Shown piece after piece: positions 1 through 9,444 of a stretch of 9,444 bases of DNA. Location of the stretch: positions 1 to 9,444 of IMG/VR virus record IMGVR_UViG_2648501797_000003, one strand, 5' to 3'. Each line of letters opens with the position of its first letter. The stretch's first letter is position 1. A program made the translations under genes and the position numbers. Origin of the DNA: a virus. Its lineage: Duplodnaviria; Heunggongvirae; Uroviricota; Caudoviricetes. The notes beneath the pieces were generated by a model. The model did no database searches. It worked only from the letters and a program-made list of their open reading frames with translations, and was not told where the DNA came from.

Positions 1-783
1 CTAAATCATCGCAATGCCGTAATGCTGCCTGATGCGAAATGGTCGCCGGAAACTTAAAACAGAAGCGGAAGTCATCTGTGGTCTGCTCACGCCAGCGCAG
101 GACAACCTCGGGTTCTCAACCGCGCCGATAACCTGTTTCTCTTCTGCGCTTAACGCCACCCAGAATTCCTGATACTTAACAGTTCCAAGGCGTGCGGCAG
201 ACTCGCCTTTTGCGATCAGTTCCGGGCGGCGATCATCCGATTCATGCCCTACATGAACCTCTGTCGCACTCCCTTCAATGACACGTTCGGCTTCGTCCTG
301 ATCGAAGATGCCAGCAAACCCAAATGCGAGACGCGCACACTGGATCAGCGTCTTGTGACGAAGCATACGGGTAGGGTGGGACTGCCATGGCTGAGTGTTG
401 CGTTTGCACTCTCCCATGTACTCAGTAACGATGGTCGGGTGTGTGCGGTCTTTCCGGTATATCTTGCAGGTACACGCGCCTTCTTCCTTGTCGTAGGCAA
501 ACTCCATTCCATCAAACTGAGGATGTTCGTTGATGATTCGAGCCCAGCCGTCAACGCCGACTACAGGAACAATTCCACCTTTATCCGGGAATGCATAAAT
601 CTCTTTTGTCCACGGGTTCAGTCCGTACTGGTTGGCGACGATCAGCAGTGCCGTGAACTGCTCATCAGTGACATTCCCACCCTTAAATGCTGTATTTTTC
701 AGAGTGTTCATCAGGTCAGTTCCGGCATCCATGCCGAGGCGGGAGGCAAGCTTCCCGGCCATTGTAGAAAGTGCTGTGCTCAT
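1..783 (-). CDS. bet: Bet / Red-beta family single-strand annealing recombinase (260 aa)
   Basis: Translation from ATG at 783-781 (MSTALSTMAGKLASRLGMD...LLIVANQYGLNPWTKEIYAFPDK...VPVVGVDGW..RIINE..QFDGM...CTC.IYRKDR.HP...TE.M.EC.....PWQSHP.RMLRHK..IQCARLAFGFAGI.D.DEAER) is near-collinear with lambda Bet as I recall it. SD GAGGGG lies 6 nt upstream of this ATG. Stop TAG is at 3-1. The ORF-track start at 834 adds 17 residues with no homology and overlaps the upstream gene. Confidence 0.9.
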   Translation of the reverse strand: MSTALSTMAGKLASRLGMDAGTDLMNTLKNTAFKGGNVTDEQFTALLIVANQYGLNPWTKEIYAFPDKGGIVPVVGVDGWARIINEHPQFDGMEFAYDKEEGACTCKIYRKDRTHPTIVTEYMGECKRNTQPWQSHPTRMLRHKTLIQCARLAFGFAGIFDQDEAERVIEGSATEVHVGHESDDRRPELIAKGESAARLGTVKYQEFWVALSAEEKQVIGAVENPRLSCAGVSRPQMTSASVLSFRRPFRIRQHYGIAMI

Positions 784-799
784 AGAATTCCCCTCAAAG

Positions 800-1084
800 T
801 TAAAACGGGCAGCCGGTGCGGTGGTCCCAGTCATATTCCGCCTGGGCGTAAGCTACTGCCGAGATGAGATCGTTATATGCCTCGCCAGCTGCATCGCTGC
901 GGAGGCCTTCGTATGGGCTTTTGTCCATCGGCACAGAGAAGCGGAACAGGCCTGACGGCTCTTTCGGCAGGGCGTCGATAATTTCCTGCGCCCGATCGTC
1001 AATCCACTTTTGCTTCTCTTCGGTTAGCGACTGTTCAGCCCATTTCCTTTCTTCGATAGCGTCGTATGCGCGGTAGGCGTTCAT
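800..1084 (-). CDS. gam: Gam-like host-nuclease (RecBCD) inhibitor, 94 aa from ATG 1084 (GTG at 1090 also possible)
   Basis: N-terminus MNAYRAYDAIEERKWAEQ resembles lambda GamS MNAYYIQDRLEAQSWARHY; similar length (~95 aa), charged helical character, and position immediately upstream of bet as in lambda. Start sits 7 nt after the stop of the upstream gene with an SD-like GAGGUG spanning that stop. Homology is from memory. Confidence 0.6.
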   Translation of the reverse strand: MNAYRAYDAIEERKWAEQSLTEEKQKWIDDRAQEIIDALPKEPSGLFRFSVPMDKSPYEGLRSDAAGEAYNDLISAVAYAQAEYDWDHRTGCPF

Positions 1085-1091
1085 AAGCACC

Positions 1092-2063
1092 TCAGTAACT
1101 GATACCGGTATGGGGAATGCGGCCGTCTTTAACCGCTGTAAGCACCTCGATAGCCTGATCCCGAGTAAGGCTGGTATTGGCCAGAAGAGCTTTGACGATT
1201 TCAGTGCCTACAGCCTTGCGGTGCTTAACGTCGGCTTCGCGGCGAGCCTGCTCATCGGCTTTACGTTTCTCCTCAGCCAGGCGGGCCTGTTCGCGTTGCT
1301 CTGCCTCGCGGCGGATGCGATCGGCTTCTTCCTGAGCTTTGCGGCGCTCCGCTTCGATAGCGGCCTGCTTGTCAGCCTCAGCTTTCTTCTCGGCTGCAAT
1401 GCGATCTCGCTCTGCCTGCTCAGCTTGTGCTTTCAACACAGCTTCGCGATGCGCCGCTTCTTCACGTTCACGCGGTGCGCGCTGCTCAACTTCTCGGGCT
1501 GCTGCGGCGGCTGCCATTCGCTTAATTTCTTCTTCATGGGCAATGCGCTGGCGCTCAGCCTCAGCTGCTTTATCTGCCTGCTCTCGGTCGAAAGCGTCAT
1601 TCATCAGCATGGCCATTTCGTGGTCAGACTCAATCCGAGCTGCCAGCTGCCGATCGAACTCTTCATTCATGGCCAGTGCTTCGACGTGAAGGGCGTTCAT
1701 GGCTTCTTCGGCCTTAATGCGTTCCTGCTCCGCCTCCCATTCGGTCAACGGGCGACGCACTTCATCTTTCAGTGCATCGAGACGCTCACGGACAACGCGG
1801 CGGCTTTCATCAATCTGCTTTGGCAGCGCCTTCAGCTCAGCGACCAGGGCTTTACCTGCGTTGTCGATGTAGGTTTTAGAGCGCGCGACCTTGTGAGCCA
1901 TGGATGCGATAGCATCGCGGCCTTTTTTGGTGGTCACGTCCGGCACCAGACTGCGAGCCTCTTTTTCGATCGCTTCGATAAGCGGATCGAGTTGGTCGTT
2001 ATTGGTGAAAACCGCCATCGCGTTCTTTTTCTCGATGACGACTAAATCCATTATTTCGCTCAT
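1092..2063 (-). CDS. Hypothetical coiled-coil protein, 323 aa; structured N-terminal ~110 aa, then long Ala/Glu/Arg/Lys-rich low-complexity helical region
   Basis: Long ORF from ATG 2063-2061 with SD AGGGGA about 5 nt upstream; stop TGA at 1094-1092 directly abuts the gam-like start. Central region is repetitive (AEAERQRIA..., AAAAAARE..., KAQAEQAERDRIAAEKKAEADKQAAIEAERRKAQEEADRIRREAEQ). The antisense frames are open only because of this GC-rich repetitive coding. Family not recognised. Confidence 0.75.
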   Translation of the reverse strand: MSEIMDLVVIEKKNAMAVFTNNDQLDPLIEAIEKEARSLVPDVTTKKGRDAIASMAHKVARSKTYIDNAGKALVAELKALPKQIDESRRVVRERLDALKDEVRRPLTEWEAEQERIKAEEAMNALHVEALAMNEEFDRQLAARIESDHEMAMLMNDAFDREQADKAAEAERQRIAHEEEIKRMAAAAAAREVEQRAPREREEAAHREAVLKAQAEQAERDRIAAEKKAEADKQAAIEAERRKAQEEADRIRREAEQREQARLAEEKRKADEQARREADVKHRKAVGTEIVKALLANTSLTRDQAIEVLTAVKDGRIPHTGISY

Positions 2064-2312
2064 GGTTTCCCCTGAAATTTGGTTGTAAGAATCCCGGCAC
2101 CGTATTGGCTGCCTGATAGCTCAGTTAAATTCGTGCGCTGATATCCGGGTTTATATTGCCTGGGAGTCATTAATCAATCTGGCGTGGAGTGCGATTCGTG
2201 GCTAAATCCCCCGCCGAACGCAAAGCCGCGCAGGAGGTAAAGATCTGTTTGGCTGGAAGTGAGGGCGTGGTAATGTGTTTACCTATTCTTCATTTGCTTA
2301 GGTGGCGTGAAA
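2064..2312. promoter_or_regulatory. Divergent intergenic control region between the leftward recombination operon and the rightward small-ORF operon
   Basis: 249 bp non-coding between divergent gene starts (2063 minus, 2313 plus). Candidate leftward sigma70 promoter: -35 TTGATT (revcomp of 2172-2177), 16-nt spacer, -10 TATAAA (revcomp of 2150-2155). Short repeated motifs TTGSCTG (2105, 2156, 2249) and GGCGTG (2181, 2265, 2303). Promoter calls are by eye only. Confidence 0.35.
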
Positions 2313-2510
2313 ATGCTGTATACAGTGACGTTCAATGAGACAGAGCGGAAGGAAGATATTGAACTTAGCGCGGATGTCAGGGCGGGTGATTTGCTGTCAT
2401 TAACGCTCGATGGCGTGAAAGATGACTACACGGTGATGACAGTAGGCGGTCCTATCATTGGCAATACCTGTGTCCCATCAATAATCCGGGTAAAAAAAGC
2501 TCAGAAATAA
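2313..2510 (+). CDS. Hypothetical small acidic protein (65 aa from ATG 2313; ORF track starts at GTG 2307)
   Basis: ORF with SD AGGTGG (2300-2305) 7 nt upstream of ATG 2313; first gene of the rightward operon. No helix-turn-helix evident, so not obviously Cro-like. Confidence 0.5.
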   Translation: MLYTVTFNETERKEDIELSADVRAGDLLSLTLDGVKDDYTVMTVGGPIIGNTCVPSIIRVKKAQK

Positions 2511-2519
2511 TAATGTATA

Positions 2520-2546
2520 ATCCCCTCCACAGCAGAGGGGATTTTT
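2520..2546 (+). terminator. GC-rich hairpin with short U-tract (terminator-like) that sequesters the SD of the next gene
   Basis: 8-bp perfect stem ATCCCCTC / GAGGGGAT (2520-2527 with 2535-2542), 7-nt loop CACAGCA, then TTTT immediately followed by ATG 2547. The 3' arm contains the GAGGGG Shine-Dalgarno of the 2547 ORF. Confidence 0.45.
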
Positions 2547-2729
2547 ATGACAAACAAAAAAATGACACCTGCCGAAAAGCTCAAAGCTTCGCGGAAGCGG
2601 TATAAAAAAATCTGGCTTCAACTGGATATCGCTAACGCCAAGCGATTTGGCGAGAAAGAAGTGCTTTCCGTTGACACCTACAGATCGCCCTATGAAACGC
2701 GCAAGAAAAGAGGAAGGACAGCAGATTGA
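2547..2729 (+). CDS. Hypothetical small basic protein (60 aa), possibly nucleic-acid binding
   Basis: [42 protein letters not shown]...; Lys/Arg-rich; a beta-strand-then-helix pattern ([14 protein letters not shown]) is compatible with a ribbon-helix-helix fold, but this is a guess. Confidence 0.5.
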
Positions 2730-2989
2730 CAACATCATCCTGGAACATAGCAGCCAAATCGAAAGACGAGCAGGACAAAGTCAACGTTGACCTCGCCGCG
2801 TCCGGCGTCGCTTACAAAGAACGCCTGAACATGCCGGTTGTCGCCGAAGTGGTGGCCAGACAACAGCCTGAACACCTGCGGGACTACTTCATGGAGCGCG
2901 TCCGCTACTACCGCGAGCAGAGCATCCAGCTTCCCCGCGCATCCGATCCGCGCTATCTGGAAATGGCTGAGCAGAACGCCAAGAAATAG
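2726..2989 (+). CDS. Hypothetical protein (87 aa) with putative TTG start overlapping the upstream stop (TTGA)
   Basis: ORF in track; strong SD AGGAAGG (2711-2717) 8 nt upstream of TTG 2726; the first in-frame ATG (2831) has no SD. Confidence 0.45.
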
Positions 2990-3095
2990 CGATTTCCTCG
3001 CCTATGCTCATTTTGCTTTTATCCCCGGGAGGGGCGATAATTACTTAGTCAGTCTGGACAACTGACAACTTTACCCCGGCGCCAAGTGGGGACAC

Positions 3096-3563
3096 ATGGC
3101 GCAAACACTGCAATTTGAGAAAAGTTATCAAAACGTACTGATTCCCGCAGAGCCGGGAACCAGCGAATACCTGCAACTTATCCCCGTAGGGCAACTGCTT
3201 TGCGGTGAGTTCCGCAAGCCCAGGAATTACGCATTCCACAAGAAGTTCTTCAAACTTCTGACTCTCGGGTATCACTACTGGACGCCTTCCGGTGGTCTCA
3301 TTGAGCCCGCGGAGCGTACCCTCATATCCGGTTTTATCGACTTTCTCTCATCCGACCTCGATCAGCGCGCTGCACTCCAGAACGCCGCGGAGATGTATCT
3401 CTCCTCGGTCGGTATATCCCGTTCCCGCGATATGGCGCTGCTGAAACACTTCGAATCCTTCCGCGAGTGGGCAACCATTCAGGCTGGCTTTTATGACGAA
3501 TACCAGATGCCTGACGGCAGCCGTCGTCGTGTCGCAAAGTCGATCTCCTTTCTGGCTCGATGA
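3096..3563 (+). CDS. Hypothetical protein (155 aa), nin-region-like position
   Basis: ORF with ATG 3096 preceded by GTGGGGA. Sequence feels like a conserved enterobacterial prophage protein of unknown function (possibly a DUF-type family), but I cannot name it reliably. Confidence 0.6.
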   Translation: MAQTLQFEKSYQNVLIPAEPGTSEYLQLIPVGQLLCGEFRKPRNYAFHKKFFKLLTLGYHYWTPSGGLIEPAERTLISGFIDFLSSDLDQRAALQNAAEMYLSSVGISRSRDMALLKHFESFREWATIQAGFYDEYQMPDGSRRRVAKSISFLAR

Positions 3564-3650
3564 CCAGCAGGTTGACTACTACAGCGTGAAGAGAATGCCT
3601 GTCGTCAAAGGTGGGCGGCTTGAGCTAACCATTACCGAAATGGAGTCCGC

Positions 3651-3791
3651 ATGAGCCGTGACGTTATCGAACGCATCCGCGACCGCTGGCAAAAGCTTCG
3701 CCTCCTGCGTAGCCGCGGCACCGTGCTGGTCGACTACAAAATATTACGCAATTTCGTCCGTATCTATAAGCGCCTGGGAGAAGCAGCATGA
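3651..3791 (+). CDS. Hypothetical small Arg-rich protein (46 aa), below the ORF-track length cutoff
   Basis: ATG 3651 with SD GGAG (3642-3645) 5 nt upstream; translation MSRDVIERIRDRWQKLRLLRSRGTVLVDYKILRNFVRIYKRLGEAA; its stop TGA (3789-3791) overlaps ATG 3788 of the next gene (ATGA coupling). Confidence 0.35.
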   Translation: MSRDVIERIRDRWQKLRLLRSRGTVLVDYKILRNFVRIYKRLGEAA

Positions 3792-4477
3792 CAGCTCAAT
3801 ACTTGGAATTTGTTCGCCAGCAGCTGATAGTGGCCACCGCCGATCTGAGTGGTGCGACGAAAGGGCAACTGGTAGCTCTTGCAGAGAACGCGCAATTTAC
3901 CGCTACGGCGCGCAGCCGTGGCCGGAAGAAGGTGTATAGCGAGGTGAAGCAAAAAATGGTTAACCCGGATGGACCGCCGATGAGCGGCAGCCAGTCCCGC
4001 GCTAAGGGTTCCTCAATCGCTCTCGTTCTGCCCGTTGAATACTCGACAGCCAGCTGGCGTCGCGCCCTCCTGTCGCTGGAAGACCACCAGAAATCCTGGT
4101 TGCTGTGGAACTACAGCGACAATATCCGCTGGGAGCACCAGGAGACGATAACCCGCTGGGCATGGGAGCAATTCAGCGACAAGCTGGCCGGTGTGCGCAT
4201 TGCAAAGAAAACAGTCGATCGCCTCCGTCAACTTATCTGGCTGGCCGCACAGGACGTCAAAGCCGAGCTGGCAGGACGGGAGACGTATGAATACCAGTCG
4301 CTGGCGGAGCTGGTTGGTGTAGCAAAGTCCACATGGACAGAAACCTACCTCCCTCATTGGCTGGCGCTGCGCAGCAGTTTTGTGAAGCTTGATAGCGACG
4401 CTCTCATGGCGGTAACGCGATCACGTTCACAACAAAAGGCGTCAAATTTAGATGTAAGTCTTGCAAAACCGAACTGA
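3788..4477 (+). CDS. Hypothetical protein (229 aa); candidate late-gene regulator (Q-like by position only)
   Basis: ORF with SD GGGAG 7 nt upstream. It is the last early gene, immediately upstream of a promoter-terminator-tRNA arrangement like lambdoid Q-pR'-tR'. It has no cysteines, so it is not a lambda-Q-type zinc-finger protein. The functional call is inference. Confidence 0.55.
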   Translation: MTAQYLEFVRQQLIVATADLSGATKGQLVALAENAQFTATARSRGRKKVYSEVKQKMVNPDGPPMSGSQSRAKGSSIALVLPVEYSTASWRRALLSLEDHQKSWLLWNYSDNIRWEHQETITRWAWEQFSDKLAGVRIAKKTVDRLRQLIWLAAQDVKAELAGRETYEYQSLAELVGVAKSTWTETYLPHWLALRSSFVKLDSDALMAVTRSRSQQKASNLDVSLAKPN

Positions 4478-4489
4478 AAGGCATATATT
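4461..4489 (+). promoter_or_regulatory. Candidate sigma70 promoter (pR'-like late promoter)
   Basis: -35 TTGCAA (4461-4466), 17-nt spacer, -10 TATATT (4484-4489), overlapping the stop codon of the 229-aa gene; predicted start near 4496, about 50 nt upstream of the terminator hairpin. Confidence 0.35.
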
Positions 4490-4544
4490 TCATGTAAATC
4501 TGATATCGTCGCCATAGCTTCGATTGTCGACACATAAAGAATTC

Positions 4545-4578
4545 AAGCCCGAGGTTAACGCCTTGGGCTTTTTCATTT
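4545..4578 (+). terminator. Intrinsic terminator (tR'-like)
   Basis: 10-bp stem AAGCCCGAGG / CCTTGGGCTT (one G-U pair), 6-nt loop TTAACG, followed by TTTCATTT. Confidence 0.6.
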
Positions 4579-4580
4579 CA

Positions 4581-4655
4581 GGGTCAGAAGCACAGCGGTT
4601 GTGCGTTCGGCTGTTAACCGAATGGTAGAAGGTTCGAATCCTTCCTGTCCCGCCA
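4581..4655 (+). tRNA. tRNA-Asn (anticodon GUU)-like gene, 75 nt including encoded CCA
   Basis: Hand-folded cloverleaf: acceptor 4581-4587 with 4645-4651 (6 bp plus one T-T mismatch), D-stem GCAC/GTGC, anticodon stem TTCGG/CCGAA with loop CTGTTAA (anticodon GTT at 4613-4615), 5-nt variable loop, T-stem GAAGG/CCTTC with canonical T-loop TTCGAAT, discriminator G, CCA. Non-canonical A at position 8. Confidence 0.6.
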
Positions 4656-4661
4656 AATAAT

Positions 4662-4732
4662 GGCCTGACCTGATGACGGGCTCATAATCCAATCCATCAG
4701 GGGCGCTGCTGCAACAGCGTCACAGGCCGCCA
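4662..4732 (+). other. Degenerate tRNA-like remnant (possible decayed tRNA with CAU-type anticodon loop motif)
   Basis: GGCCTGA (4662-4668) pairs with ACAGGCC (4722-4728) and is followed by G-CCA. Inside are a 7-bp hairpin (4669-4675 with 4695-4701) whose loop contains CTCATAA, and a 5-bp hairpin CGCTG/CAGCG (4704-4719). No D-arm and no canonical T-loop. Confidence 0.25.
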
Positions 4733-4789
4733 GACCAAGCCTGGGTATTTTCGGTCATCACCGACATTGCTATTACCCTCATGCTTATT

Positions 4790-4818
4790 GCCTGCCTAAC
4801 CGCAGGCTTTTTTATTTT
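4790..4818 (+). terminator. Intrinsic terminator
   Basis: 6-bp stem GCCTGC / GCAGGC, 6-nt loop, followed by TTTTTTATTTT. Confidence 0.6.
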
Positions 4819-4920
4819 CAGGGTCGCGGGAATCACCCTCGACGCTTTGTTGGTAAATCAGCCCGACGGCCCTGACCTTCTCACACACAGCTTCCCGATC
4901 TTTCATCGGAGGCGGTAACT

Positions 4921-5340
4921 ATGGCTAAGCGTATGCAAGACAAAGAGAGCATTGCCGGGATGTCCTGGCTGGTTCTGCTGATCATTGCTGGTTGGGGCGG
5001 CCTTGTCCGATTCCTGATGGATGTAAAGCAGGGCAAAGCAAAATGGAGCTGGATAAATGCTTTTGCGCAGATTGTGGTTTCGGCTTTTACCGGGGTTATT
5101 GGTGGGCTCATCAGCATTGAAGGTGGCCTGAGTATTTACATGATACTGGCCACTGCCGGTGACCAGGTTAACAGCGAGCTATGGTGGGCGATTCAGAACG
5201 GTTATATGACGGTTAAAGCCGCAGGGGTTCGTGTCCGTGAAATAGAGACCGTCAGTGATGGTTATCAGTTTTTTGGCTTCGATATCGAAAATGACTATAT
5301 CGCTGGCTTCGACCGCGGGTCATGGGGAGAGAGATTTTAA
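4921..5340 (+). CDS. Holin-like small membrane protein (139 aa) with dual-start motif
   Basis: SD GGAGG (4908-4912) 8 nt upstream of ATG 4921. N-terminus M-A-K-R-M (Met1 and Met5 separated by Lys-Arg); hydrophobic helices around residues 11-33 and 43-79; charged C-terminal region. First gene after the late promoter/tRNA region, where lambdoid holins sit. Confidence 0.6.
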   Translation: MAKRMQDKESIAGMSWLVLLIIAGWGGLVRFLMDVKQGKAKWSWINAFAQIVVSAFTGVIGGLISIEGGLSIYMILATAGDQVNSELWWAIQNGYMTVKAAGVRVREIETVSDGYQFFGFDIENDYIAGFDRGSWGERF

Positions 5341-6221
5341 TGGCGACTAACGATTTTAAACCCTTCGCTACTGGTAGCGGGGCAAACGTATTATCACAAG
5401 CTGATTATGACGCACTGTCGGCCAGAACAACTGGCTTTTTAAGTGGCAAAGCGTCTTCGGCCCAGGTCAACAAAGCTTTAAGGCAGGCATCAACTATTGC
5501 GGCGGTTGTGGCGCAGTTTATTTCTGATAACAGCGGCGATGACACCCTTGATAACGGTAATTTACCTACCTTACTGGCTAGTCTCGAAAGCGCCCTCCTC
5601 AAGTCCTCCCCTGGGCGGTTACAGAATATCGTTAGCTTTACCGCAAATGGGACCTACACCCCATCGCCAGGAACCAAACATGTAAAAGTTATTGTTACTG
5701 GCGGTGGTGGCGGTGGTGGTGGTTGTCAGGGAACTTCAGGATCTGAATCAGTTTCAGGTGGCGGCGGCGGTGCTGGTGGTACGGCCATTGGTTATTTTGC
5801 TGTAACTGAATCCAGCTATGCAGTCACTGTAGGTGCTGGTGGTTCTGCTGGCGTTGGTGCTGTCCAGGGTGGAACAGGCGGAACCTCAATCATTAACGGC
5901 ATTAGCGGATTGGGCGGAGATGGTGGTCAGAAATCAGGGATCACTACGCTGGCTGGTGGGAAAGGCGGTATTTCTATTGGTGGCTCGGTTAACCTTCCCG
6001 GAGGTTACGGCACTGATGGGCAAAATGGCTCCCTGATTATCCCCGGCAATGGCGGCTCGTCATATTGGGGCGGCGGTGGTCGTGGGGGCGCACGCGGGGG
6101 CGTGGCAGGGGATTGTTATGGTGCCGGTGGTGGTGGCGCATATGATGCTGCCATGTCTGGCAACTCCTACAATGGCGGACAGGGGAAAGCAGGGATTGTA
6201 TATATTGAGGAATATTCTTAA
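5340..6221 (+). CDS. Glycine-rich protein (293 aa from ATG 5340), tail-fibre/adhesin-like
   Basis: ATG 5340 overlaps the upstream stop (TAATG) with GGGGAGAGAG upstream; the ORF-track start at 5322 lies inside the upstream gene. N-terminal ~110 aa ordinary composition (MATNDFKPFATGSGANVLSQADYDAL...), then polyglycine tracts (G8, G5, GGxGG) separated by short variable segments. Family not identified. Confidence 0.7.
   Translation: MATNDFKPFATGSGANVLSQADYDALSARTTGFLSGKASSAQVNKALRQASTIAAVVAQFISDNSGDDTLDNGNLPTLLASLESALLKSSPGRLQNIVSFTANGTYTPSPGTKHVKVIVTGGGGGGGGCQGTSGSESVSGGGGGAGGTAIGYFAVTESSYAVTVGAGGSAGVGAVQGGTGGTSIINGISGLGGDGGQKSGITTLAGGKGGISIGGSVNLPGGYGTDGQNGSLIIPGNGGSSYWGGGGRGGARGGVAGDCYGAGGGGAYDAAMSGNSYNGGQGKAGIVYIEEYS
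5700..5723 (+). repeat. In-frame trinucleotide simple-sequence repeat (GGY)8 encoding Gly8
   Basis: GGC GGT GGT GGC GGT GGT GGT GGT read directly from the sequence, within the Gly-rich CDS. Confidence 0.8.
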
Positions 6222-6391
6222 TGGTAAGCAAGTATGCAGTCCTGAAAGAATGCGTGGTAGAAAACATTATTGTTGCTGATGATAATTACTCTCCTGATGA
6301 TTTCGAAGTCGTAAAATATAGCGACGAAACATTTTGCCAGCCAGGCATGTTGTACAATAAAGAGGATGGTTTATTTTATGATGATAAATAA
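6221..6391 (+). CDS. Hypothetical small protein (56 aa), translationally coupled to the Gly-rich gene
   Basis: ATG 6221 overlaps stop TAA 6219-6221 (TAATG); translation MVSKYAVLKECVVENIIVADDNYSPDDFEVVKYSDETFCQPGMLYNKEDGLFYDDK. Below the ORF-track cutoff. Could be a short chaperone or a fragment of a tail-fibre assembly protein; unproven. Confidence 0.35.
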   Translation: MVSKYAVLKECVVENIIVADDNYSPDDFEVVKYSDETFCQPGMLYNKEDGLFYDDK

Positions 6392-6438
6392 TCATCAAGA
6401 ATAAATAACATTATCTACATATCTACACATTACCAATC

Positions 6439-6463
6439 AACCGGCTTATGCCGGTTTTTTATT
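6439..6463 (+). terminator. Strong intrinsic terminator directly abutting the start of the 694-aa gene
   Basis: 7-bp stem AACCGGC / GCCGGTT, 4-nt loop TTAT, followed by TTTTTTATT; ATG of the next gene at 6473. Confidence 0.7.
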
Positions 6464-6472
6464 GGGGCGACC

Positions 6473-8557
6473 ATGAGTGAATACGATACCGGCAATCCTG
6501 TGCCGTCTGCATCAATACCTGATGCATGGGATAATATGCAGTCTATTGACAGGTTCGCTAATAGTAGTGATGAAACTATTACCACGCGTACAGGTAAGCA
6601 GTTAGACACTCTGCATGGCATCAATGTAAAGTCTGATAACCAACTTAATGAACAACAAGATACCTTTGAATTATCTCAATCCGAAAGGGAATCCTCTTTC
6701 GAAGAAAAATCAAATGAATTTGAATCGCGCTTCTCCTCTCAGTTATCGGCGCAGGAATCAACATTTTCAGAATCTCAATCTGATAAAGAAAACCGCTTTC
6801 AGCAGTTCCTGAATACTTCAGGATACGTGTTCCTTGGCGATTATCAGGACGGCCCATTCCAGTTTAGTGCCCGTAACCAGTACATCCGTTACGGCAATGA
6901 GTATTACCGCCTGAATGCTGCTACTGACGTCGGCTTTACGACCACCGGAACCGATGCGACCAGCTTTGCGAACGACGTTACTCACTTCGTTCTGATGGAT
7001 GGTGATACGCTTCGCCAAGACCTGGGTTCAGGCGAAGGAGCAATGAAGGTTTACCGGAACGCCTCACCTCTGGCCAGAATCATTCGCTCCTCGATTTTTG
7101 AATACCTTACTGAAGCTGATCAGCAGGCGTTGCTCACAATTCCTGGCGTTAATGTTATCGCTGACTACGCGTTAAAAAAAGCTATAGCTGATGGAGTGAT
7201 GGTACTGGATATTCCGTGGAATGTCGGTGCGTTAAATTTCGGGCTTGACCCCGCAATGCTTCCATTAGGTTTTCAATTTATAGGGTGGGGTTGCCGACGC
7301 CCATATACAATTGATGACGATAACAGTTTTCTGAATTGCGGAGTCGTCATCCGCGTAGCTGCTGGTGCAAGTTTTCCATTTTATTCAACAGGCAGGCATG
7401 TATTCCGGGATATTGTTTTTGATGGCCGAGATAAAACAACGTACCTTTTTTATTCGCCAAATACTGCAACCCAGTTCAACGGCACCCGACTTGAGGGGTG
7501 TGGATTTTATCGGTTTGCGATCGGGATTGGCTGGGCTTCAGGAGGAACAGCCAGGTACATCGGAACAATGAAAGCATATTTCTGCTCAATATCCGGAAAC
7601 GGGGATGGAGTCAGGAATTTAATAGACTCCATGATGTTTGGTTGCACAATCAATGCTAATGATCGAGGAGTGGCCCTTACCGGTGGGGCAAACAATAACT
7701 TTTTTGGAGGATGCCGGAACGAATGGAACACCGGCGATAACTGGTATGCGTACCAGTCGGTGGAGAACCAGATTTTCGGCGAACTGTGCGACAGGGCCGG
7801 AAGGGGAGGTGTGGTCGCCGGGGCGAAATCCTCATGGATTTTAAACGGCGTTAACGTCCGGCGCAGTGGTGCTAATCAACCCGTGGGTAATGACTATTCC
7901 GCAAACTTTATTATTATTGATGACGGTAAAATTGAACTCTCAGGGGTAAGAACTGGTGTCGGTGCGAATGACAGCGGTGACGGAGGGACAATCTCGCCAT
8001 CCTACAACGTATCAGCTCTTGGCTCTGGCGGGGGGACCTTGCAGGTTTCCGGAAGTGACATGACTGGTTTTGTTACTTCAGCAATTAACCAGAAGGCGAC
8101 CACGTTAAATAAGTCGATAACCGGCAACCTTGGTATGGACGACGATGTAAATATTGGTATGACCCAGGTTGTTAAAGGCAGGCGAATTATTGGTTCACAG
8201 TCATCAGGTACGTTAGCAGGCTCTGCGGGCGCAACGTTATCGCTGACCAAGACCAACATATTCCAGAATTATTTCGATACATATATTACCCGTTCAATCC
8301 TAATTGAATGTCGAATTGGTAGCCAGTCATTTGGTGACGATATTAAAATTCCCGTCAGATTCAGAAGGGAGAATCTTTATTATCTGGATATCCTGACCTC
8401 GGGAATTGTTGCCAGCTCTGCACGCATTGGGCTTTCAGGGACTGGCGTAACGGTATCATTGTCCATTAACAGCTCAACCGGTCTGGTTACTGTTCAGTTG
8501 ACAAATGTTGATGGTCTGGAAAGAACCGTTAATGTATCAATGTTGCCCTCAATGTAG
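6473..8557 (+). CDS. Tail-fibre / tailspike-like protein (694 aa); probable receptor-binding protein with beta-helix-like body
   Basis: Long ORF. N-terminal acidic Ser/Glu/Phe repeats with roughly 11-residue spacing of Phe (TFELSQSERESSFEEKSNEFESRFSSQLSAQESTFSESQSDKENRF), typical of fibre coiled-coils; central and C-terminal Gly/Asn/Ser/Thr-rich stretches resembling beta-helix tailspike proteins. No specific family confirmed. Confidence 0.7.
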   Translation: MSEYDTGNPVPSASIPDAWDNMQSIDRFANSSDETITTRTGKQLDTLHGINVKSDNQLNEQQDTFELSQSERESSFEEKSNEFESRFSSQLSAQESTFSESQSDKENRFQQFLNTSGYVFLGDYQDGPFQFSARNQYIRYGNEYYRLNAATDVGFTTTGTDATSFANDVTHFVLMDGDTLRQDLGSGEGAMKVYRNASPLARIIRSSIFEYLTEADQQALLTIPGVNVIADYALKKAIADGVMVLDIPWNVGALNFGLDPAMLPLGFQFIGWGCRRPYTIDDDNSFLNCGVVIRVAAGASFPFYSTGRHVFRDIVFDGRDKTTYLFYSPNTATQFNGTRLEGCGFYRFAIGIGWASGGTARYIGTMKAYFCSISGNGDGVRNLIDSMMFGCTINANDRGVALTGGANNNFFGGCRNEWNTGDNWYAYQSVENQIFGELCDRAGRGGVVAGAKSSWILNGVNVRRSGANQPVGNDYSANFIIIDDGKIELSGVRTGVGANDSGDGGTISPSYNVSALGSGGGTLQVSGSDMTGFVTSAINQKATTLNKSITGNLGMDDDVNIGMTQVVKGRRIIGSQSSGTLAGSAGATLSLTKTNIFQNYFDTYITRSILIECRIGSQSFGDDIKIPVRFRRENLYYLDILTSGIVASSARIGLSGTGVTVSLSINSSTGLVTVQLTNVDGLERTVNVSMLPSM

Positions 8558-8565
8558 GAGTGAAA

Positions 8566-8745
8566 ATGGAAGACGAAACAGAACTGACCGAACCGCCATT
8601 TGAAACCTGGTTCAGAGACGTGGTTGAACTGGTTAAAAATGGCGGACATTCAATGGATATTGTTGCCTATAAGGGGGAATGGGTTGATTATTTTTCGGAA
8701 GGATTAACACCAGAAGATGCGTTTATAAAAAGAATGGCTCTTTAA
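8566..8745 (+). CDS. Hypothetical small acidic protein (59 aa from ATG 8566)
   Basis: SD AGGAG (8556-8560) overlaps the stop of the 694-aa gene, 5 nt upstream of ATG 8566; very acidic (MEDETELTEPPFETWFRDVVELV...). Confidence 0.5.
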   Translation: MEDETELTEPPFETWFRDVVELVKNGGHSMDIVAYKGEWVDYFSEGLTPEDAFIKRMAL

Positions 8746-8858
8746 ATAACCGACCGAAAATAAATGTCAGGGAGTAACGTATTGATAATTTTCGACAAAA
8801 CGGCAGAGCATAGTGAAAACCGCCTGTGGATGATGGCCAACATGGGGAGGATTCTGTA

Positions 8859-9176
8859 ATGGGCTTTCCATCACCCGCGACGGATTACACGGAACAGCGA
8901 TTAACGGTTAACTCGATCTGCAATGTCGGTCCAAATACGCGCCTCTTCGAGCAATCTGGCGGTTACGTTGTGCTGGATGTCTCCCTGAAACCAAAGCAGG
9001 CCAGTCAGGTTCTGATCCAGCACGGCGGCGGGACGGAGCTTGCCACGCTGAGAGGAAGGTCGCTGATTACCGAAGATGGTGAAGCGATCGAGGGCGAGGC
9101 CCTGGACGATGTTACTGTCATCGGTGTAGTGACGTTTACTATCTGCGATGTGCGCCAGGACAATGCGGTTGTTTAG
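8859..9176 (+). CDS. UmuD'-like protein lacking the N-terminal pro-peptide (HumD-like; 105 aa)
   Basis: SD GGAGG (8846-8850) 8 nt upstream of ATG 8859. N-terminus MGFPSPATDYTEQRLTVNSIC matches the UmuD segment GFPSPAADYVEQRIDLNQLL that begins at the Cys24-Gly25 self-cleavage site (13 of 20 identical by my recall). C-terminal TVIGVVTFTI resembles UmuD DVFGVVIHVV. No GDSM serine motif seen and no umuC-like ORF downstream. Confidence 0.65.
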   Translation: MGFPSPATDYTEQRLTVNSICNVGPNTRLFEQSGGYVVLDVSLKPKQASQVLIQHGGGTELATLRGRSLITEDGEAIEGEALDDVTVIGVVTFTICDVRQDNAVV

Positions 9177-9339
9177 TTGCAGTCAATTGATGGAAGATTT
9201 CGCGTGGCAGGCGTCTTGGGGCATGGGTGGGGCATGAGAAATCAGTGAATTTCGCCAAACATTGCAAACAACGTATGTTGGATGCTATCTCCAGCCATTA
9301 AAAATGGCGCTCCTGGACGATATTTGTCGATTTTTAAAT

Positions 9340-9444
9340 TTACCGCGTCACGCAGTTAAAGTGGCGGGCATACTCTTCAAGGCTGGTGATCCCCAACCGC
9401 ACCCATTTAGGATGCGACCATTGCGGTAGACCGATGTAAATCAT
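9340..9444 (-). pseudogene. 5' fragment (34 codons plus stop) of a DUF72 / YecE-like host gene, apparently interrupted
   Basis: Minus-strand translation from ATG at 9444-9442: MIYIGLPQWSHPKWVRLGITSLEEYARHFNCV then TR-stop. This matches my recollection of the E. coli YecE (DUF72) N-terminus, which should continue EGNTT...; divergence begins near 9348. Identification from memory. Confidence 0.45.

Follow-up and report, generated by a model that had tools for sequence, protein, structure and literature searches.

Why does the same ten-nucleotide word, TTTCAGGGTC, stand directly behind two transcription terminators that bracket a tRNA gene in the virus record IMGVR_UViG_2648501797_000003, whose positions 1 to 9,444 (the whole stretch analysed, hereafter the window) come from a tailed phage of the Caudoviricetes? 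The word occurs exactly at 4576-4585 (copy 1) and at 4816-4825 (copy 2) of the + strand, with a spacing of 240 bp, as had been noticed in the original prediction, which suggested either the duplication of a terminator-tRNA unit with loss of the second tRNA or a conserved processing or antiterminator-recognition site. Judged by its sequence, the region is the late leader between the antiterminator gene Q and the holin gene of an E. coli/Klebsiella lambdoid prophage. We consider it probable that a tRNA cassette (4581 to ~4815) was placed between the late terminator tR' and the holin leader by short-homology recombination, and that the two copies mark its seams on the left and on the right.

Without gaps the repeat extends over 17 nt, 4569-4585 (TTTTTCATTTCAGGGTC) and 4809-4825 (TTTTTATTTTCAGGGTC), of which a repeat search finds 15 identical (88%), and it grows to ~21 nt, GGCTTTTT[C/T]ATTT[-/T]CAGGGTC, when one gap is allowed. 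What is repeated is a U-tract and the ~12 nt that follow it; the two terminator stems show no similarity. Terminator 1, the tR' hairpin (4545-4570, + strand), is predicted to form an 11-pair stem with six GC pairs followed by TTTTTC, and terminator 2 (4790-4807, + strand) a stem of six pairs, five of them GC, followed by TTTTTT, the predicted structure being in both cases that of an intrinsic terminator. The repeated architecture first proposed is thus retained for the motif and its U-tract, and, the stems being unrelated, dropped for any repeated terminator unit. Since U-tracts are expected past terminators and inflate the apparent length of the repeat, a chance recurrence of the word behind two U-rich tails had to be weighed. 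With up to one mismatch, three matches are found on both strands of the 9.4-kb window against 0.55 expected, a number reached by 3 of 200 shuffles; two of them are exact copies at an equal offset from a terminator, and both junctions are kept across dozens of related phages, so that a chance origin is effectively ruled out and would be the least credible of all the explanations considered here. As a separate observation, the whole genome of Klebsiella phage ST11-VIM1phi8.1 (L266) contains the word with up to one mismatch eight times, against 2.4 expected and with none of 100 shuffles reaching eight, the extra copies lying mainly on the minus strand within genes.

The two copies occupy different settings. 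Copy 1 (4569-4585, + strand) comprises the U-tract, CATTTCA, which would be the 5' leader of a tRNA precursor, and GGGTC, which, as first read, is the 5' end (nt 1-5) of a tRNA. Both ARAGORN and Rfam (61.4 bits) place a tRNA-Asn(GTT) of a phage type termed here v1 at 4581-4655 (+ strand). This is the only tRNA of the window, and an Rfam search of the 146 nt at 4780-4925 detected none behind copy 2 at E<=10, again in agreement with the first reading. Copy 2 (4809-4825, + strand) comprises a U-rich spacer and the foot, on its 5' strand, of hairpin F (4818-4875, + strand), a conserved structured leader RNA called from its fold and covariation; the AU-rich stretch UUUUAUUUU (4808-4817, + strand) abuts F on its 5' side. 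Within the copy, UUUU belongs to the spacer, and UCAGGGUCG, as the 5' strand of the stem, pairs with CGGCCCUGA at 4867-4875; the bases UCAGGGUC are paired, and compensatory changes extend to the U of UCA. A tandem duplication of a terminator-tRNA unit, followed by decay of the second tRNA, would account for the order of terminator and 10-mer in both units, and another phage tRNA-Asn variant starts with GGGTCG as F does, its 3' strand CGTCGTCCC resembling, by inspection, CGACGGCCC of F. The unrelated stems and the lack of any tRNA residue at E<=10 in 4780-4925 nevertheless make this origin very improbable, and F covaries under structural selection of its own, has a shape unlike a cloverleaf and is found in many phages without any tRNA.

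The relationship between the two copies emerged from a comparison of ~85 related loci, drawn from GenBank phages, E. coli genomes, IMG/VR and four Kluyvera genomes. Their Q-holin leaders are combinations of tR' types, a module B, a module D, tRNA arrays, a spacer E, terminators, F and holins. The position of terminator 2 is taken by at least 10 unrelated stems, and what follows the terminator is nearly always a U-tract, AUUU(U)CAGG and hairpin F. One upstream context, consisting of modules B and D and the terminator GGGCTGCGC..GGCC-Tn (Tn being the U-tract) with ATTTCAGGGTC, has two alternative continuations. In loci L005, L028, L042, L047, L088, L097 and L001 it runs into the tRNA-Asn body AGAAGCAC and goes on with the array, E, a second terminator, a second motif copy and F, and in L055, L071, L077, L095, L103, L105 and L111 it runs directly into the F body GCGGGAAT; the point where homology switches between the two types lies immediately past GGGTC. 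Because the same upstream module joins either tRNA-Asn or F at the motif, the tRNA cassette is an indel bounded by the two copies, and the comparison links these by descent, as edges of a cassette present or absent between the same flanks. All 25 loci with the v1 tRNA-Asn have the same, nearly invariant 12-nt stretch ahead of it, and the terminator stems upstream of this stretch are of three different kinds. The motif is missing from the other terminators of these late leaders, a fact that speaks against the suggested antiterminator-recognition site; Q-type antiterminators are loaded at the late promoter and not at terminators.

The history that we favour would start from a widespread ancestral unit composed of an intrinsic terminator, a U-tract with AUUU(U), hairpin F, a hairpin over the Shine-Dalgarno (SD) sequence and a dual-start holin. 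Copy 2 would represent this unit intact, supplied by the array's own downstream F unit, and copy 1 the terminator-proximal flank of an F unit joined to a phage tRNA-Asn. The join may have been made within the 5-6 bases shared by chance between the F stem (CAGGGTC or CAGGCTCA) and the 5' end of the tRNA (GGGTCAG), by short-homology recombination between co-infecting or resident lambdoid genomes with the phages' own Red/Bet-type annealing recombinases as likely agents, and the tRNA would have gained by it the terminator and U-rich flank of the F unit. Later gain or loss of the cassette could proceed by recombination between the two direct repeats or with phages carrying F only, and a like process at the 3' CCA ends of tRNAs would remove internal ones. 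Copy 1 would then function merely as a pre-tRNA leader cut off by RNase P, and copy 2 as part of a structured leader at the 5' end of the lysis mRNA. What the analysis shows directly is the repeat and its conservation, the alternative joints and the helix of the RNA; from these we infer the direction of the founding event, from F flank to tRNA, and the recombination pathway.

Several loci retain arrangements consistent with such a join. The copy-1 form of the flank, TTTTTCATTTCAGG, stands exactly ahead of F subtypes in L133 and L138 and with one extra T in L136, in these cases behind terminators that are the same as or similar to that of copy 1, and nearly all F subtypes, those of Kluyvera, Salmonella and Enterobacter among them, have 'terminator + U-tract + AUUUCAGG' as their normal left edge. 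The GGGTC start itself is, by comparison of homologues, intrinsic to the tRNA, and the homologue of this tRNA-Asn in T5-like Aeromonas phages starts with GGGTT behind a different flank (AATTTT|GGGTT). One relative encodes Exo/Bet/Gam, which, from established knowledge of Red-like systems, would fit an annealing-type recombination on short, imperfect homology.

Other observations weigh against this history. Among the ~85 loci, no near-identical pair of genomes differing by the cassette alone was found, and visible differences separate the two alleles of the shared upstream module over the ~60 nt beside the seam; therefore, the events are old or the partners were diverged. A pattern scan of IMG/VR yielded no match to the window's own tR' fused directly to F, the predicted deletion product. 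In HK639 the terminator, the motif and the tRNA-Asn occur without F in the stretch searched, hence the left unit also travels alone, and it is parsimony only that argues for the direction from F flank to tRNA. Likewise, the near-invariance of the 12-nt copy-1 leader could reflect selection for processing, not recent ancestry.

Direct repeats flanking a cassette might also be left by a target-site duplication, or by a homing endonuclease driving a mobile tRNA cassette into a specific site at the 5' edge of F, the presumed cut site being T-run/TTTCAGGG in cassette-free phages. That edge has indeed been hit recurrently. An HNH-AP2 homing-endonuclease gene lies between the tRNA array and F in RothC (L008, 965-1504), ending 1 nt before TTTTCAGGGTC, and an unrelated ORF (open reading frame) of 207 aa, also inserted between array and F, ends 10 nt before F in L123 (4889-5512, minus strand) and L106. 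Both thus end 1-10 nt before TTTTCAGGG, with their first 13 codons in common (MRQRFISKKVNAM), which marks the left edge of F as a site of repeated insertion. For the cassette itself, such an insertion appears to us unlikely: the repeats are imperfect (15/17), with an indel, and of unequal length; neither a recombinase, endonuclease or transposase gene nor an ORF of integrase size is present in the 240-bp cassette of the window; the content of the cassette varies between loci; and its right half, E with the terminator, is common to arrays that enter via module B without the left repeat. The bases duplicated are nt 1-5 of the tRNA and its upstream flank, and not the 3' part of the tRNA that an integrase attachment site would involve.

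The interior of the cassette has been reshuffled as well. Arrays are drawn from seven tRNA types (two Asn variants, Phe, Thr, Arg, a tRNA with a CAT anticodon and Gly) in many combinations, cassettes with Asn, Asn-Arg, Asn-Phe-Thr, Asn-Arg-Gly and Asn-Thr being among them. Spacer E, which in the window is a 134-nt series of small hairpins beginning ATAATGGCCTGACCTGATGACGGG (4656-4789, + strand), lies in relatives 3' of whichever tRNA ends the array, usually tRNA-Arg, and in the window it is fused to the 3' end of tRNA-Asn at CCA-AAT|AATGG. Loss of tRNA-Arg occurred independently in the window (joint at 4650-4662) and in L001 (joint at 1874-1886, CCA|GATAATGG), the crossovers falling at different points of a CCA-RAT microhomology in the 3' trailers of the tRNAs. 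The spacer past the tRNA (4653-4672) begins AUAAUGGCCUGACCUGA, and GGCCUGACC is identical to what forms the 3' strand and tail in some F subtypes (GGGCCUGACC). As UUUCAGG stands on the opposite side of the tRNA, a split F-like hairpin might enclose the array, or this might be a 9-nt coincidence. Module B is a hairpin of ~75 nt with a 12-bp foot, UCAGGGCUCUUG/CAAGAGCCCUGA, followed by ACCA (for example L010 1125-1205 and L002 1245-1325), and sits 9-10 nt ahead of the first tRNA in many arrays. It shares the helix foot UCAGGG/CCCUGA with F, is matched neither by the F covariance model nor by Rfam, and might be a tRNA-like processing element. Module D, which the window lacks, corresponds to Rfam STnc100 with up to 104 bits (L005 824-1018, L003 1409-1604, L009 1934-2139), and therefore the late leaders of relatives carry small RNA (sRNA) genes besides tRNAs.

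If copy 2 belongs to an RNA element with its own reason to be conserved, what is this element? Hairpin F consists of a 13-bp lower helix with one bulge, a conserved internal loop of 8/8 nt and a 5-bp apical hairpin; in the window its lower helix pairs UCAGGGUCGCGGG (4818-4830) with CCCG-A-CGGCCCUGA (4862-4875), and the minimum free energy (MFE) fold of the leader has a z of -3.5. Folded singly, 25 of 26 divergent F variants take the same shape, the exception (L065) being a recombinant within F. We built a covariance model (R1) seeded by a MAFFT alignment of the variants, in which the 5' stem was out of register, and then re-aligned the variants to the model; R1 scores 88.5 bits on the F of the window. 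In the model-fitted alignment 95.6% of cells are paired, against at most 47% with slid partners, and both sides have changed at 5 of the 13 pairs of the lower stem, with 24 double-change cells against 6.5 in shuffles; a fitted alignment is biased towards structure, and the independent folds and variants read by hand agree with it. The foot of the stem reads GGGUC/GGCCC in the window type, GGUUC/GAACC in Salmonella UPF_BP1 and GGCUC/GAGCC in Kluyvera, and in divergent subtypes GGUCC/GGGCC, GGCCU/GGGCC, CCCAGGCCC/GGGUCUGGG or CCCAGACCC/GGGUCUGGG. As this covarying foot contains G-U pairs, the RNA of the + strand is the relevant molecule. The same fold in divergent homologues, together with compensatory changes, characterizes F as a conserved structured cis-acting RNA.

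F elements are 63-68 nt long and, according to the covariance model, occur once per locus and once in a complete 42.7-kb phage genome. They lie ~45 nt ahead of dual-start holins that belong to four Pfam families (LydA-type, P21 S, HP1-type and lambda S). No Rfam family matched F at E<=1 over the window, and nothing meaningful appeared at E<=10 in 4780-4925; in the literature, no description of F or of the seam was found. The steps in length between F elements are not multiples of three and, together with the homing-endonuclease stop that abuts F in RothC, exclude a conserved ORF in F. An ORF of 45 aa running across terminator 2 and F (4781-4918) was accordingly rejected, as homologues carry 1-2-nt indels, its start lies within the variable terminator and another gene's stop codon abuts F in RothC. 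A promoter within F (TGnTAAATC, resembling an extended -10) was discarded too, since the hexamer lacks the key A2/T6 combination and a scan finds none. Recombinants inside F were met in L002 (1806-1871, Mulock), L065 and L133, with 5' and 3' halves from different subtypes and 1-2 stem mismatches, so that F is both a selected structure and a crossover site. In a search of GTDB with a 16-base F pattern, at least four genuine Kluyvera prophages with F are among the matches listed, most of which are chance matches that tell little about the distribution.

The structure of F also bears on whether the motif is a shared RNA-processing signal, UUUCA|GGGUC, cut by one nuclease at both places, either RNase P or, within the AU-rich stretch, RNase E. 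At copy 1 the cut would free tRNA-Asn; at copy 2, where F would serve as a tRNA-like minihelix, it would generate the 5' end of the lysis mRNA. Both copies do lie in single-stranded AU-rich RNA between two stable hairpins, the copy-1 leader is almost unchanged between loci, and, counted from G4821, F is a 10-bp helix with a 3' tail, UGACC/UGAACC, that loosely resembles an acceptor stem with NCC. Furthermore, PMC8022706 states that it is unknown whether the tRNAs of late leaders are cut out of the late mRNA and by which route they are expressed. On the other side, the UCA ahead of GGG in copy 2 is paired with UGA and covaries (UA to CG), unlike the leader of a pre-tRNA such as the single-stranded UUUCA of copy 1, and the structural contexts thus differ, which speaks against a conserved processing site common to both. 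The 3' tail of F has no conserved CCA (ACC, CCU, CCC, AUC, GCC or ACA are found), the F subtypes of L140-L142 keep the helix without the 10-mer, and F escapes the tRNA model even at E<=10. The predicted UCA/UGA pairing and the non-conserved tail in particular argue against F or the motif as a substrate of RNase P. All in all, we hold a shared signal to be unlikely, if slightly less so than the insertion of a mobile cassette.

As to the function of F, the copy-2 leader most likely serves as a processing, stability or folding-insulator element of the lysis mRNA, placed, as our best guess, between a 'safety' terminator and the switch formed by the SD hairpin and the dual start. More tentatively, F with its abutting terminator could form a cis-acting RNA module, not described before, by which enterobacterial lambdoid phages set the fate of the lysis mRNA. 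It might define a processed 5' end or the stability of this mRNA, or insulate the SD hairpin and dual-start switch from upstream cargo, and contribute in this way to the timing of lysis. The strands of the internal loop (GGGAAUCAYC and GUUGNUAAAUCAG) would be a putative binding site of a host or phage factor, and the tRNA seam would have arisen as a by-product because F is the only landmark of the leader that does not vary.

The remaining features of the leader agree with a lambdoid late region. Positions 4440-4960 are 100% identical to an E. coli ST361 prophage, and many Klebsiella prophages are closely related. The late-gene antiterminator gene Q (3788-4477, + strand; 229 aa) matches Pfam Phage_antiter_Q with an E of 1e-82, and its homologue in the identical ST361 prophage is annotated as "antitermination protein Q". 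A pR'-like late promoter (TTGCAA, 17 nt, TATATT; 9/12 in a consensus scan) overlaps the end of Q at 4461-4489 (+ strand), a presumptive assignment backed by its position directly 5' of an IsrJ-type RNA. This short pR'-to-tR' leader of 79 nt, the counterpart of lambda 6S RNA (4493-4571, + strand), begins 16 nt past the Q stop and matches Rfam RF01393 (isrJ) over its full length (model 1-75/75; 57.1 bits against a gathering score of 37; E 1e-8), terminator 1 being also the 3' hairpin of the model. IsrJ, described as a Salmonella island sRNA affecting invasion, resembles the 6S-type leader RNA of a Q-dependent late promoter. A simple consensus scan, which a weak promoter could escape, gave no sigma-70-like site at 4490-4580, and none was detected by it within the tRNA cassette, whose expression most likely depends on Q-dependent read-through of tR'.

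Downstream of F, a hairpin predicted by both the MFE and the centroid fold (4887-4916, + strand) would sequester the SD sequence GGAGG (4908-4912) ahead of the holin ORF (4921-5340, + strand; Pfam Phage_holin_3_3), which has the dual start MAKRM. All leader types among the relatives combine an SD-type hairpin, of differing stem sequence, with a dual start (MQRM, MKM, MYRM, MTKM or MRM). The holin ORF of the window is intact only to ~5160 (~residue 80), where the identity to the ST361 prophage stops and unrelated sequence begins. No endolysin follows; instead, an ORF with a Gly_rich_2 domain (5322-6221) and an ORF of 694 aa without a Pfam match (6473-8557) are found, and this prophage seems to have had its lysis cassette disrupted or replaced.

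The repeat is a well-resolved example of ordinary phage mosaicism, and F, the part absent from databases, is a more interesting by-product than the repeat itself. The former provides a base-resolved case of tRNA and sRNA cargo being shuffled in lambdoid late leaders via a seam of ~17-20 nt, which is of relevance to the annotation of prophages in clinical E. coli and Klebsiella and to the way in which phages adjust their tRNA sets. The latter, ~60 nt of covarying RNA without an Rfam match before holins of four unrelated families, is a candidate regulator of lysis-gene expression and a useful landmark for finding the start of the lysis cassette.

Stx phages carry the tRNA cluster ileZ-argN-argO. 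In lambdoid and P22-like phages such as phage L and Sf6, tRNA genes are found at the 5' end of the late operon (PMC8022706). Like that of the window, these tRNAs lie between the late promoter, dependent on Q or gp23, and the lysis genes, with tRNA-Asn(GUU) frequent and a variable presence; the window differs by the reduction of its array to one tRNA bracketed by a direct repeat. Modules B and E, hairpin F and the composition of the arrays seen here are not mentioned in the passages of PMC8022706 covered by a term search.

The left flank of the cassette has its counterpart in the lambda series pR'-6S RNA-tR' and in IsrJ, a described RNA of Salmonella Gifsy-1 (Rfam RF01393; PMC2330248), of which 4493-4571 is a full-length family match. 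This likeness concerns terminator 1 only and leaves the repeat unexplained. Morons are autonomous insertions of promoter, gene and terminator in phage operons. The cassette of the window is moron-like as an accessory insertion between essential modules with a 3' terminator of its own; the promoter that a moron would also have was not disclosed by the simple consensus scan, which could miss a weak one.

Downstream, the known references are the 'sdi' structure in the leader of lambda S and the hairpins at which RNase III processes T7 or lambda RNA. In having an SD hairpin and the dual-start MAKRM, the holin region resembles the arrangement of lambda S, and the hairpin may act by analogy with sdi. 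F itself is set apart from sdi by lying ~45 nt ahead of the start codon as an element distinct from the SD hairpin, and no relationship of F to any described element was found in sequence or in Rfam. In outline, the predicted F, whose lower and upper stems are separated by a large internal loop, is similar to RNase III sites, a likeness of shape only.

The seam as a whole belongs with what has been learned from the modular theory of Susskind and Botstein, the work on mosaicism of Hendrix and Casjens, Red-mediated recombination between diverged sequences and the relaxed homologous recombination of Rad52-like phage recombinases. Like the boundary ('linker') sequences of lambdoid mosaics, it is a short conserved noncoding sequence at the joint of unrelated modules, and it has many partners on the left (terminators, an sRNA, tRNAs) as well as on the right (tRNA-Asn or the F/holin leader). 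Unlike neutral linker DNA, it is a selected RNA stem on one side and the 5' end of a tRNA on the other.

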